In this document: in pieces, positions 19,337-23,141 of the stretch
Numbering within the stretch: position 1 is the first letter of the stretch
Layout of the letters: every line of letters begins with the position of its first letter
Assembly: GCA_963663275.1 (NCBI GenBank)
Contig: OY760183.1
Span: 1,760,001-1,824,000 of the forward strand
Length of the DNA: 64,000 nt
Direction: 5' to 3'
From: Chloroflexota bacterium
Lineage (GTDB): Bacteria; Chloroflexota; UBA11872; VXOZ01
Position numbers and translations under genes: made by a program
The notes under the pieces: model-generated
Databases searched by the model: none
Told to the model about the DNA's origin: nothing
Seen by the model: the letters and a program-made list of their open reading frames with translations, nothing else

Positions 19337-22042
19337 TCAGCGTCCGTGGCAGCGTTTGAACTTTTTGCCGCTGCCGCACCAGCAGGGGGCGTTGCGGCCC
19401 AGTTTGCGGCCGCCCTGTTTGCGGCGGGAGCGGGTCTGGGGGCGGCGGGAGTCTTCCTCGCCCCGGTTGGTTGCCGTCACCGCCTGGGGTTGCGGTTGCG
19501 TTTCCGGCGCTGCCTGCACGCGGTAGATGATCTGGGCGGTCTGGCGCTGGATGTTGGCCGTGAGTTCCTGGAACATGCGGTAGGCCTCGGCCTTGTACTC
19601 CGAGAGCGGATTGCGCTGGCCCACGGCGCGCAGGCCGATGCCGGTGCGCAGGTCTTCCATGGCCGTCAGGTGCTCGGTCCAGAGCGAGTCGATCGTGCGC
19701 AGCAGCACCCAGCGTTCCACCTTGTTCATGATTTCCGGCGTCATGGCTTCCGCGCGCTCGGCGTAGACCGAGTCCGCCCACGCGGTGAGACGCTCGGTAA
19801 TATCCTCGGTCGATAGATCCGCCAAGGCGTCGGCCGGCGGCGCGGCAGGTTGGTTTACCTGTTGGCGGCAGGCCTCCACCAGGGCCGGCACGTCCCAATC
19901 TTCCTGCGGCTCGGTGGTATGCGCGGTCACCATCTGCGCGATTTCATCGTGGATCATGCTTTGAATCTGCGGTGTGACCGCTTCCAACTCCAGCACCTTG
20001 CGCCGCTCGCTGTAGATGGTGTTGCGCTGGGTGTTGAGCACGTCGTCGTACTCCACCGTGTGCTTGCGCAGGTCGAAGTTATAGGCTTCCAGCTTGGTCT
20101 GGGCCTGTTCCAGGGCCTTGGTGATGAGGTTGTGCTCGATTGGCATGTCGTCGTCCATGCCGAGGCGGTCCATGATGCCGGAGATACGGTCGCTGCCGGC
20201 GCGCTTGAGCAGTTCGTCATCCAGCGAGACGTAGAAGCGCGAGAAGCCCAGGTCGCCCTGGCGGCCGGAGCGCCCGCGCAACTGGTTGTCGATGCGGCGG
20301 GATTCATGGCGCTCCGTGCCGATGACGTGAAGGCCGCCGGCCGCGCGCACGGCTTCCGCTTCCGCCGCGGCGGGCGGGTTGCCGCCCAGCACGATGTCGG
20401 TGCCGCGTCCGGCCATGTTGGTGGCGATGGTGACGGCCCCCTGCCTGCCGGCTTGCGCCACGATTTGCGCCTCTTGTTCGTGGTACTTGGCGTTCAGCAC
20501 CTGGTGTTCGACGCCGCGCCGTTTCAGGAGCATACTCAGCGCTTCCGAAGTCTCGATTGAGGTGGTGCCTACCAGCACCGGCGCGCCTTGGTTCTTGGCC
20601 AACTCTTCGATGGCGTCCGCCGCCGCGTTGAACTTGCCCTTCTCCGTGCGGTAGACGAAATCGGCCTCGTCCTGGCGCACCATCGGCATATTTGTGGGGA
20701 TCTCGACCACGTCCAAGCCGTAGATCTTGCGGAACTCGTCGGCTTCCGTGGCCGCCGTGCCGGTCATGCCGGCCAGTTTGTCGTACATGCGGAAGTAATT
20801 CTGGAAGGTGATGGTGGCCAAAGTCTTGCTCTCGCGCTGGATCTTGACGCCCTCTTTGGCCTCGATCGCCTGGTGCAAGCCTTCGCTGTAGCGGCGGCCG
20901 GTCATGAGGCGTCCGGTGAACTCATCGACGATGACGACTTCCGCGTTGGGGTCGTGGTGCTCGATCACGCGGCCGTCTTTCATCAGCACGTAATCGCGTC
21001 CGCGCTGGTAGAGCGCCCGCGCGCGGAGGGCCTGCTCCATGTAGTGCACCAGTTCGAACGCGCCCTCTTCGTAGAGGTTGCCCACCCCGAGCCACTTCTC
21101 CATCTTGGCGATGCCCTCTTCGGAGATGCTCACGGCCCGTTGCTTGTGGTCGATGGTGTAGTCCTGCTCCTCCCGCAGGCGGGGCACCAGGCGCGTGAAA
21201 CTGCCAAACGTCCCGCCGGGCGCCTCGGCCTGGCCGGAAATGATGAGCGGCGTGCGCGCCTCGTCGATGAGAATGTTGTCCACCTCGTCGATGATCGCGT
21301 AGTTGTGCTTGCCCTGCACGAGTTCATTGAGGTCCACGACCATGTTGTCGCGCAGGTAGTCGAACCCGAACTCGTTGTTGGTGCCGTAGGTAATGTCGGC
21401 GGCGTAAGCTTCTTTGCGCGAGACCGTTTCCAACTCCTCGCCGCTGCCGTGGTGCGTCTCCCGGCCCGATTCCTTGGGCGCGAACACGTAGGCCGTATCG
21501 TGGTTGATGCAGGCCACGGTCAGGCCGAGGGCGTGGTAGACCGGCCCCAGCCACTCGGTATCGCGGCGGGAGAGGTAGTCGTTTACGGTGACCACGTGGA
21601 CGCCCTGGCCGCTGAGCGCATTGAGGTAGGCGCTGAGCGCGGCGACGTAGGTCTTGCCCTCGCCGGTCTTCATCTCGGCAATCTGGCCGCCGTGGAGCGC
21701 GATGCCGCCGTGCATCTGCACGTCGAAGAGCCGATGGCCGCTGCTGTGTCTCTTGACCGCCTCGCGCACCGCGGCAAAGGCTTCGGGCAACAGGTCGTCA
21801 AGGTCTTCGACGCCGTCGCCGCGAAACTCGTCGTCACCGTTCCTCGCCGCTTGCGCCGGGGGTGTGGAAGCATGAACGGCAACCCCCAGGCGGCCGCGGA
21901 ATTCCCCGGTCTTGCCGGCGAGTGCGGCGTCGGAGAGGGTTTCGAACGCGGCTTCCAGCGCGGCGATTTGCTCCACCAGCGGCTCCTGGCGGGAAATCTC
22001 GCGTTCCGAGTGATCGAAGAAGCGTTGGATTACCTTTAACAT
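19337..22042 (-). CDS. secA: Preprotein translocase subunit SecA
   Basis: EMKTGEGKT, IIDEVDNILIDEARTPLIISG, ESRRIDNQLRGRSGRQGD and SEC-C motif GRNAPCWCGSGKKFKRCHG. Confidence 0.99.
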   Translation of the reverse strand: MLKVIQRFFDHSEREISRQEPLVEQIAALEAAFETLSDAALAGKTGEFRGRLGVAVHASTPPAQAARNGDDEFRGDGVEDLDDLLPEAFAAVREAVKRHSSGHRLFDVQMHGGIALHGGQIAEMKTGEGKTYVAALSAYLNALSGQGVHVVTVNDYLSRRDTEWLGPVYHALGLTVACINHDTAYVFAPKESGRETHHGSGEELETVSRKEAYAADITYGTNNEFGFDYLRDNMVVDLNELVQGKHNYAIIDEVDNILIDEARTPLIISGQAEAPGGTFGSFTRLVPRLREEQDYTIDHKQRAVSISEEGIAKMEKWLGVGNLYEEGAFELVHYMEQALRARALYQRGRDYVLMKDGRVIEHHDPNAEVVIVDEFTGRLMTGRRYSEGLHQAIEAKEGVKIQRESKTLATITFQNYFRMYDKLAGMTGTAATEADEFRKIYGLDVVEIPTNMPMVRQDEADFVYRTEKGKFNAAADAIEELAKNQGAPVLVGTTSIETSEALSMLLKRRGVEHQVLNAKYHEQEAQIVAQAGRQGAVTIATNMAGRGTDIVLGGNPPAAAEAEAVRAAGGLHVIGTERHESRRIDNQLRGRSGRQGDLGFSRFYVSLDDELLKRAGSDRISGIMDRLGMDDDMPIEHNLITKALEQAQTKLEAYNFDLRKHTVEYDDVLNTQRNTIYSERRKVLELEAVTPQIQSMIHDEIAQMVTAHTTEPQEDWDVPALVEACRQQVNQPAAPPADALADLSTEDITERLTAWADSVYAERAEAMTPEIMNKVERWVLLRTIDSLWTEHLTAMEDLRTGIGLRAVGQRNPLSEYKAEAYRMFQELTANIQRQTAQIIYRVQAAPETQPQPQAVTATNRGEEDSRRPQTRSRRKQGGRKLGRNAPCWCGSGKKFKRCHGR

Positions 22043-22076: not shown

Positions 22077-22201
22077 GGGCGCTTCGCGAAGCGCCCCTAC
22101 ATGTTTGGCCCGCGAAGCGGCCCTACGTGTGTGGCTCGCGGGAGCCCCTACGTGTGTGGCTCGCGTTAGCCTCTACCTGTGCGGCTCGTGGTAGCCCCTA
22201 C
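22077..22201 (-). repeat. Tandem array of about 5 degenerate GTAG-type REP units (~25 bp) upstream of secA
   Basis: Repeated ...gcccctacgtgtgtggctcgcg... units; the first is the hairpin GGGCGCTTCGCGAAGCGCCC-CTAC. Confidence 0.8.
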
Positions 22202-22453
22202 GTGAGCGTCCTGCGGGTGGGGGATTTTGGCTGCTTACTTGGGCCGGACGTTTCATTGCTTGCCTTCAGTCTACGTGGGGAAAACGAACGGAGTCAATGA
22301 AGCGATCCGCCGGCCGGTGGGTGGTGCGCCATTTTGCTCGTGCCGGCGGCGGTGGCCGGAGGTGGGCAGGAGCGGACGCGAGGGGTCTGCGGACGCTTGG
22401 GCGAGCGCGCGACGGGTGGGGATGAAGCGGGAGCGCGCCGGTACGGCGCGACT

Positions 22454-22481
22454 TTGCCTCTGCGGGCGGGTGTGCTATAAT
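22454..22481 (+). promoter_or_regulatory. Sigma70-type promoter (for the RNA element / rpsO leader)
   Basis: TTGCCT-N16-TATAAT with extended TG (TGCTATAAT). Confidence 0.7.
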
Positions 22482-22487
22482 GTCCCT

Positions 22488-22638
22488 GTTTGGCTGCAGG
22501 TTCGTCTTAGTCCTTGCAGCATCCTTGCAACTCCCCCGCTCTGGATCTACTCCAGTGATTCTCGCTGCTCAGGCAGCGCGTCCTCGTCCCACTTTATCTT
22601 CCTACCTACAATCACGCCCGACGAACCTGCCGTCAAAC
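22488..22638 (+). ncRNA. Candidate structured RNA or long rpsO leader element (unassigned family)
   Basis: 19-bp closing stem 22488-22506 / 22620-22638 starting at the predicted TSS; three internal hairpins; C/U-rich linkers. Confidence 0.55.
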
Positions 22639-22789
22639 GCTTTGCAGTCCTTTTCCCCAGTGGTTTCCGTGTGACAATTGCGCCCGCCGTCCCGAATCTC
22701 TTTGCGGTTGCGCGCAGAGAGGGAACGTGGGAGTATAGAGAGACGGATTGTTGCCTGCGGGCGCGGGAGTATTAAGAGGTAGGAGCGGC

Positions 22790-23056
22790 GTGCTGACGAC
22801 AGAACAGAAGCAAGAGATAATTACGCGGTTTGGCCGGGGGTCGAAGGACAGCGGCTCGTCCGCCGTGCAGGTTGCGTTGCTGACCGAGCGCATCCGGCAG
22901 ATTTCAGCCCACATGGGCGCGCACAAACGCGACAAGCACTCTGAAATGGGATTGCTCAAGCTGGTGGGGCGGCGGCGGCGGCTCCTGCGGTACCTTCATC
23001 GCCGCGACCCGGAGCATTACCGCACGGTTATTGCCGAACTCGGCCTGCGCGGCTAG
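22790..23056 (+). CDS. rpsO: 30S ribosomal protein S15
   Basis: GTG start after AGGAG; DSGSSAVQVALLTERI..HKRDKHS..GLLKLVGRRRRLLRYL. Confidence 0.97.
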   Translation: MLTTEQKQEIITRFGRGSKDSGSSAVQVALLTERIRQISAHMGAHKRDKHSEMGLLKLVGRRRRLLRYLHRRDPEHYRTVIAELGLRG

Positions 23057-23101
23057 GCGGCCTCATCCGCCTTGGCCGCTTGTGCCACAGGTGGTAAAGT
23101 G

Positions 23102-23141
23102 AAGCGCTGCGACGTACCCGGTCGTAGCGCTTTTCTGTTTT
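23102..23141 (+). terminator. Rho-independent terminator of rpsO
   Basis: AAGCGCTGCGAC-loop-GTCGTAGCGCTT followed by TTCTGTTTT. Confidence 0.7.

Follow-up and report, generated by a model that had tools for sequence, protein, structure and literature searches.

RESULTS

A candidate small RNA gene between secA and rpsO

We analyzed the region between secA and rpsO in a 64,000-nucleotide (nt) stretch of a Chloroflexota genome (contig OY760183.1, positions 1,760,001 to 1,824,000; hereafter the window, numbered from its first base), where a structured RNA had been proposed from the sequence alone (the original prediction). The two genes, whose identities were confirmed by Pfam, are divergent: secA lies on the minus strand (19337-22042) and is transcribed away from the proposed RNA, and rpsO, encoding ribosomal protein S15, lies on the plus strand (22790-23056) behind a Shine-Dalgarno sequence, AGGTAGGA, at 22777-22784. 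The 747-nt gap between them holds a plus-strand promoter and, just downstream, a 151-nt core (22488-22638, its 5' end predicted) whose two ends pair into a long stem. This element is very probably a separate gene for a small non-coding RNA. As judged from sequence comparison, the RNA is real, conserved, restricted to one genus, and matches no Rfam family.

The comparisons draw on a class sample of 98 genomes in six families, including the genome that carries the window (G000, 3.53 Mb). The RNA itself was aligned over 16 rows, namely this genome and 15 relatives of its genus, which together represent 15 distinct sequences; counts out of 16 refer to these genomes.

The promoter (22454-22481) is near-consensus and of the extended -10 type. 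It consists of a -35 element TTGCCT (22454-22459), a 16-nt spacer, and a -10 element TATAAT (22476-22481) preceded at a distance of one base by TG (22473-22474), and it matches the consensus at 10 of 12 positions. A consensus scan over 1.4 kb called three promoter-like sites where 0.2 were expected. The coordinates given in the original prediction hold: six nucleotides separate the promoter from the stem, so that the predicted start, G22488, 7 nt past the -10 element, is the first base of the stem. In both relatives scanned (loci L016 and L014), the same promoter was called as TTGCCA-17-TATACT with the TG, and in the alignment it is present in all 16 genomes, 6 nt before the stem in every one.

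Predicted fold and composition of the RNA

The closing stem, P1, joins a 5' arm at 22488-22506 to a 3' arm at 22620-22638. A repeat finder recovered it as 19-nt arms with 89% complementarity and 113 nt between them, and its pairs are exactly those originally described, with 17 Watson-Crick pairs together with a single G:U pair and a single U.C mismatch. The minimum free energy of the plus strand over 22488-22638 is -49.5 kcal/mol (z = -5.55), a value that none of 200 shuffled sequences equaled; the minus strand gives z = -3.09. Positions 5 to 19 of the 5' arm are invariant among the 16 genomes, as is CGAACCUGC in the 3' arm, the outer part of which changes only in wobble-compatible ways.

Within P1, the predicted fold begins with a hairpin, P2 (22514-22530), that carries a loop of the CAUCC type; neither its UGCAGC stem bases nor the CC of that loop vary. 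An unpaired linker with a run of five C residues (22531-22540) leads to a further hairpin, P3 (22541-22555), and an extra GC-rich hairpin (22564-22577) is followed by a C/U-rich, G-poor, mostly unpaired tail (22578-22619) that contains UCCUACCU at 22600-22607. A conserved tail motif that reads AUCGUCCU in the relatives reads AUCUUCCU here. All three of the small hairpins first proposed appear in the minimum-energy fold of this genome's RNA, but the third is an insertion peculiar to it, absent from 15 of 15 relatives, in which the core is 131 to 134 nt long.

The description of the enclosed 113 nt as strongly C/U-rich with seven UCC motifs was borne out. This interior is 68% C+T, which places it in the top 0.03% of 113-nt windows in the 64-kb stretch, and seven TCC motifs were counted in it, compared to three or four in most relatives. 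Among all 16 genomes the interior is 63 to 70% pyrimidine and 13 to 20% G, with a C/G ratio of 1.7 to 3.2 (this genome is 64% G+C). Of the 561 long-range stems measuring 16 bp or more that a scan of the whole genome returned, nine surround an interior with strand bias (at least 65% or at most 35% pyrimidine). The eight besides P1 resemble repetitive extragenic palindromes (REPs) or miniature inverted-repeat transposable elements (MITEs), belong to a tandem repeat, or lie under long open frames, and none of the eight has a promoter-like site at its 5' edge. Elsewhere in the genome, we noted two copies of a hairpin element whose arms begin with AATGCGACAGCATTGG (G000:C1:495657-495744 and 2714579-2714677, with stems of 18 and 27 bp); this element looks MITE-like.

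Distribution and conservation of the RNA

A dispersed repeat had been named as a finding that would undo the proposal, and the RNA proved to be single copy. A 261-nt query found one full-length match in its own genome, all other matches being at most 26 nt long with E values of at least 0.4. A covariance model built from the alignment found one copy each in 16 of the 98 class genomes, these being the source genome and 15 of its 16 genus relatives, and no match in the 81 genomes of the other five families. The remaining genus genome (G014) is 69% complete and has no S15 match either; therefore, the locus is unassembled there. An exact two-part sequence pattern run over genome contigs returned 14 loci, all within the genus, which is known from metagenome-assembled genomes only. 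A slightly looser pattern run over metagenome contigs returned three loci. One is a real copy (153 bits), identical to the type found in genome G009; the other two, in GC-rich, coding-looking sequence without a covariance model match, were rejected as chance matches.

At all 16 loci secA and rpsO are divergent neighbors, and the RNA lies between them, directly upstream of rpsO and in the same orientation. In 13 genomes the two genes lie approximately 555 to 565 nt apart; the distance is 747 nt in this genome and reaches 1308 nt in G010 and 1424 nt in G011. The gap contains three alignable blocks: a promoter-like site of secA, the RNA with its promoter, and a block just upstream of rpsO. The first of these, TTGACT-18-TAGACT on the minus strand (22297-22268), is conserved in the alignment. 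Mean column identity over the RNA alignment is 77%. Among 14 genomes, mean pairwise identity is 0.98 (0.977) for the 5' arm of P1, 0.90 for the 3' arm, 0.76 for the interior, 0.68 for the promoter, 0.56 for the rpsO 5' untranslated region, and 0.51 for the spacer that follows P1 (22639-22707 in this genome). This spacer is poorly conserved, measures 69 to 74 nt in 14 genomes, and is the site of insertions in the other two, G010 and G011. For comparison, the S15 proteins of the relatives are 70 to 83% identical to that of this genome.

We also searched for analogues upstream of rpsO outside the genus, requiring stems of at least 12 bp around an interior of at least 60% pyrimidine. The search covered 17 loci (17 genomes, 14 genera; 96 genomes have an S15 match), together with L026, L027, L028, L036, and two positive controls. 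In other genera, three hits lay no more than 300 nt from rpsO, one of them apparently inside a coding region; they did not resemble the RNA, and none is preceded by a comparable promoter. Among the other genera scanned, a comparable element was found only in one (g5, of family f5), approximately 1 kb upstream of rpsO.

The g5 element lies at 340-490 of L027 and also in L025, L028, L029, and L030, and is kept in each of the five g5 loci compared. It comprises a TTGACA-17-TATCAT promoter (in four of the five loci) and a 7-bp hairpin, followed by a clamp of 16 to 17 bp around a C/U-rich loop of 44 to 46 nt. Between the element and rpsO is an open frame (408-1139), the start of which the element overlaps, and the element's sequence does not align with that of the secA-rpsO RNA. 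A search of the literature for regulatory RNAs in Chloroflexota, including any such RNA near rpsO, revealed no study of them among the papers listed.

Comparative evidence for the stem and for the strand

P1 is present in the minimum-energy fold of all 16 sequences, and 98.9% of its cells in the alignment are paired. Eleven of its pairs never vary; six vary, each on one side only and always to another standard pair. When the partner strand was slid by 1 to 3 columns, pairing fell to between 17 and 44%. In G010 the base opposite the U.C mismatch has been lost, and the helix still forms. G:U pairs account for 46 of 345 stem cells and would be A.C on the minus strand or mismatches in DNA. These pairs and the conserved promoter fix the strand as plus, in agreement with the original prediction. 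The case for structure rests on conservation, wobble-compatible variation, and the slid-partner control.

Inside the clamp, P2 (UGCAG/CAUCC-type loop/CUGCA) is nearly invariant. P3 is built from CUGGW-N5-WCCAG in this genome and in G011, where its innermost pairs are A:U and U:A, respectively; a direct motif count gave GAUUGC-loop-GCARUC at the same position in the other 14 genomes. One hairpin made by two unrelated sequences at one position is helix-level replacement. A run of at least four C residues occurs in the enclosed region of all 16 genomes, aligned to the linker and predicted to be unpaired in most, and GTCCT occurs in 15 of 16, this genome having TTCCT. No reading frame is conserved over the element: in G004 each of the six frames is interrupted by stops, and the indel lengths are not divisible by three.

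A further helix was considered, in which AGUCAUG just 5' of the P1 3' arm would pair with a downstream CAUGACU. It was marginal relative to shuffled sequences in 12 genomes (fraction, 0.008 to 0.11) and no better than shuffled sequences in this genome, G004, G010, and G011 (0.32 to 0.80), and we rejected it.

Separation of the RNA from rpsO

A promoter-like block stands between the RNA and rpsO at 22708-22736 on the plus strand, with TTGCGC, a 17-nt spacer, TG, and GAGTAT. It was read from the alignment rather than called by the scan, and it is conserved in 16 genomes as TTGCGY, 17 nt, TG, and GACTAT in most relatives. By reading of the loci, other families of the class likewise have a promoter-like site 85 to 110 nt before rpsO. 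In G010 and G011, insertions of 744 and 968 nt, respectively, separate this block from the RNA; in both genomes the block stays with rpsO and the RNA is kept. The two genomes are not each other's closest relatives, and the insertions are independent. Because rpsO keeps its own promoter-like block and because two insertions separate it from the RNA, the RNA looks like a separate gene and not like an S15 operator.

The G011 insertion carries a 159-codon, lipoprotein-like gene of the Pfam family Phage_VG64 (L010, 1967-2446), and the G010 insertion (L018, approximately 760-1500) includes repeated units that begin with GTCATTCTG. The core of the rpsO block, CTATAG, is palindromic, so that its minus strand reads TATAGT or TATACT, a good -10 element (22708-22740 here; 1455-1484 in L016). 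This minus-strand site, which lacks a conserved -35 element, was called in L016 and not in L014. As far as sequence can suggest, an antisense transcript may run from the rpsO block across the RNA gene.

The original prediction had drawn attention to an 8-nt complementarity to the rpsO translation start. In this genome TCCTACCT (22600-22607) is indeed the exact reverse complement of the Shine-Dalgarno sequence, but the relation is not conserved, and such a match is what any C/U-rich RNA gives against a purine-rich Shine-Dalgarno sequence.

Relation to known RNA families and protein partners

As had been advised, we compared the window with Rfam (release 15). There were no matches in the whole window at gathering scores, none overlapping 22454-22700 at E values up to 10, and none at the RNA in the loci of three relatives at E values up to 1. 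ARAGORN found no tRNA-like gene or module. Identity with the signal recognition particle RNA was rejected, as that RNA is encoded elsewhere in the genome (G000:C1:3359878-3360142). Of the proteins that might bind such an RNA, Hfq was not found in the genome, and neither CsrA (PF02599) nor Rsr/TROVE (PF05731) gave a match there at E values up to 1. Without CsrA and Rsr, the readings as a CsrA sponge and as a Ro-associated Y RNA fall. Y RNAs and YrlA have paired ends and a large pyrimidine-rich internal loop. The RNA described here shares this plan, its ends forming a long stem around such a loop, but its genome has no Rsr/TROVE gene, and the RNA has no tRNA-like module and no Rfam match.

A closing-stem architecture like that of 6S RNA or Ms1 had also been suggested. 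With 6S RNA the element shares a promoter in the style of abundant RNAs, a closing stem in which the 5' end pairs with the 3' end, and the lack of a terminator of its own; E. coli 6S RNA is cut out of a longer transcript. The likeness ends at the closing stem. In all 16 folds the interior is mostly unpaired, with no central bubble, and since both of its halves are pyrimidine-rich and mostly unpaired it cannot form the rod, so that we rejected a 6S- or Ms1-like structure. The 6S model, RF00013, had no match in this genome at E values up to 10 and none in the 16 genus relatives at E values up to 0.01. In the class as a whole it matched 18 of 98 genomes, all in family f4 (18 of its 19 genomes); the other five families, with 79 genomes in total, gave no match, and there 6S RNA either has been lost or has diverged beyond the model. 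With matches confined to f4, the place of 6S RNA is open in the genome studied here. None of six f4 6S loci had an S15 or SecA match; by reading of the translations, one lies between frames resembling an ABC transporter and an aspartyl-tRNA synthetase.

The closest likeness in kind is to small RNAs of Gram-positive bacteria that act through C-rich regions and do so without Hfq. Bacillus subtilis RoxS and FsrA are described as contacting their targets through such regions (PMC8216469). Like RoxS/RsaE and FsrA, the RNA has its own promoter of the sigma-A/sigma-70 type, a length of approximately 100 to 150 nt, several unpaired C-rich motifs, and a proposed action without Hfq. It differs in showing no sequence or covariance model similarity (no Rfam match to RsaE/RoxS or to 6C), in its 19-bp end clamp, in lacking an intrinsic terminator, and in having no known target. 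Small RNAs of this kind end in a terminal hairpin, and the actinobacterial 6C RNA is another relative in kind with C-rich regions.

DISCUSSION

A possible mode of action and the points against it

The features above suggest how the RNA could work. Driven by the strong promoter of the sigma-70 type, the transcript would begin at G22488 or a neighboring base. Its first 19 nt would then pair with nt 133 to 151, forming P1 as a clamp that hides both ends and encloses two small hairpins and approximately 60 to 70 nt of G-poor, C/U-rich single strand. That single strand would present the C run of at least four residues found in every genome and the conserved GUCCU (15 of 16 genomes), and these segments would pair in trans with purine-rich mRNA sites, such as Shine-Dalgarno regions, independently of Hfq. 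We favor a trans-acting, Hfq-independent RNA because the conserved C run predicted to be unpaired, the CC of the P2 loop, and GUCCU resemble the C-rich regions found in RoxS and FsrA. The stand-alone RNA with unpaired, C-rich segments of anti-Shine-Dalgarno character that was among the first suggestions is thereby supported. Pairing in trans by the exposed C-rich segments is, as a mechanism, a tentative proposal that we hold to be possible rather than probable; a separate RNA gene together with a base-pairing mechanism falls a little short of an even call.

Either Rho would generate the 3' end by terminating transcription, or a longer transcript would be trimmed or cut back as far as the base of P1. 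Three observations lead us to favor a Rho-made or processed end: no intrinsic terminator was found, the interior resembles a site at which Rho loads, and the genome encodes Rho. A Rho utilization (rut) site is a stretch of at least about 80 nt that is C-rich, G-poor, and weakly structured, and it needs no conserved sequence, clamp, or hairpins. The interior has this character over approximately 95 to 113 nt in all 16 genomes, and in this respect, as in the presence of Rho, the locus resembles Rho-dependent leaders and terminators. It differs from rut sites in having conserved sequence, the clamp, and the hairpins.

Several results weigh against the picture of a separate, base-pairing RNA. The transcript itself, with its start and end, we infer from sequence. 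Neither in the window nor in the two scanned relatives is P1 followed by a terminator-like hairpin and U tract, and the spacers of the 14 genomes without an insertion contain no conserved fold or intrinsic terminator; read-through into rpsO is therefore possible. The stem, which the original prediction proposed to trace in relatives, is kept in all 16 genomes but lacks formal covariation support: neither P1 nor P2 has a pair in which both bases changed in a compensatory way, and the observed score did not exceed the shuffle control, being reached by 183 of 500 shuffles. No target was found in the two neighboring genes, the interior pairing better than composition-matched shuffles (fraction below 0.05) with its own rpsO start region in 1 of 16 genomes and with the secA upstream region in none of 16. 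In this genome and G011 the tail sequence differs from that in the remaining 14, which fits poorly with a fixed seed. Finally, over the inner 11 bp of P1 the bases themselves, and not their pairing alone, are unchanged in every genome, which points to recognition by a protein rather than to a passive clamp.

Alternative explanations

The original prediction had also raised an autoregulatory leader of the S15 type, and in a broader form this is the alternative that we considered most closely. The element would be the distal part of a long rpsO leader, fed by the upstream promoter, in which the interior serves as a loading site for Rho or a binding site for S15 or another protein and sets how much transcription reaches rpsO. 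The position and orientation directly upstream of rpsO in all 16 genomes fit this well, as do the missing intrinsic terminator between the two and the rut-like composition in a genome that has Rho. The RNA also has a multi-helix junction and, in P1, a G.U pair beside a G-C pair (pair 5 in eight rows of the alignment and pair 6 in five), a motif that S15 reportedly needs; in a review, S15 operators are described as acting at translation initiation and requiring a U-G/C-G motif (PMC10931766). The register of that motif, however, shifts between genomes. The RNA ends 152 nt before the rpsO start codon and neither overlaps nor borders the ribosome-binding site, which sits poorly with the action at translation initiation described in that review (PMC10931766), and no Rfam S15-leader model matches. 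The conserved promoter-like block that stays with rpsO and the two independent insertions, one of them carrying a gene, that left the RNA in place show the two to be separable. We therefore set aside the S15-type leader as first worded and regard the broader version as unlikely. A stable protein-binding RNA, acting as a decoy or scaffold, would account for a different set of facts. A protein reading the inner part of P1 and the junction, or the pyrimidine-rich strand, would explain why the sequence of 11 bp of P1 and of the P2 stem never changes among genomes whose S15 proteins are only 70 to 83% identical to that of this genome; burial of both ends in a helix and the strong promoter suit such an RNA, which could replace the 6S RNA that RF00013 does not find in this genome or in five of the six families. 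Yet the interior lacks the rod and central bubble that define 6S RNA, the genome yielded none of the candidate partners TROVE/Rsr, CsrA, and Hfq, and restriction to a single genus is unusual for a housekeeping RNA, so that we think this explanation quite unlikely. The bolder form of it, in which the element would be the first protein-binding, end-clamped, pyrimidine-rich stable RNA in Chloroflexota, whether as a stand-in for 6S RNA (undetectable in five of six families) or as a Ro-independent Y-like RNA, is decidedly improbable; the g5 clamp RNA upstream of rpsO may be a second example of that kind, unrelated in sequence.

The inverted repeat could instead act as DNA, for example as a site of recombination or as a pair of sites for protein binding. 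The two arms are strongly conserved at the sequence level, and in the relatives the rpsO block contains another occurrence of a similar motif, CGAACGTGC, but all variation in the stem is wobble-compatible, the G:U cells would be mismatches in DNA, a conserved promoter lies at a fixed distance from the first arm, and the interior is conserved as well, with a strand-specific composition. This makes a DNA-level repeat highly improbable. Hardly credible at all, as far as sequence can tell, are a minus-strand sponge for CsrA with multiple GGA motifs, as once proposed, a dispersed REP or MITE, and a small protein gene. The minus strand does fold better than shuffled sequences, and this genome has an open frame of 182 codons (22227-22775) that spans the region. 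Against these stand the absence of CsrA, the conserved promoter on the plus strand with no conserved counterpart on the minus strand, and the A.C mismatches into which the G:U pairs would turn; the element is, moreover, single copy, and the stops in six frames of G004 and the frame-breaking indels leave no room for a protein. A separate gene for a small RNA thus remains the reading we prefer.

Other features of the window

Directly downstream of secA, on the minus strand, lies a gene for an N6/N4 DNA methylase (PF01555; 18148-19320). Between secA and its promoter-like site, tandem REP-like hairpins occupy 22077-22204, with a period of 25 to 26 nt, three to four copies, and a 12-nt inverted pair (22077-22088 with 22111-22122). 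This array is present only in this genome among the 16, and most of the extra length of its gap comes from it. A palindrome of 24 to 25 nt within it (approximately 22077-22101) has 100% identical copies elsewhere in many genus genomes and in some genomes from other families. Downstream of rpsO, a terminator-like hairpin at 23101-23133 coincides with subthreshold Rfam matches (23029-23136) to ar7 (23.3 bits; gathering score, 60) and RcsR1 (17.5 bits), which are most likely terminator-shaped chance matches.

Implications for regulation in the lineage

With a promoter, a fixed predicted start, a conserved fold, a single copy, and a syntenic position, the RNA is a clean candidate in a genome in which Hfq, CsrA, Rsr, and a recognizable 6S RNA were not detected. 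It would be one genus-restricted small RNA among many in bacteria, and nothing yet points to an unusual mechanism. If expressed, it would offer a handle on posttranscriptional control in this lineage, and it could seed a new Rfam family.

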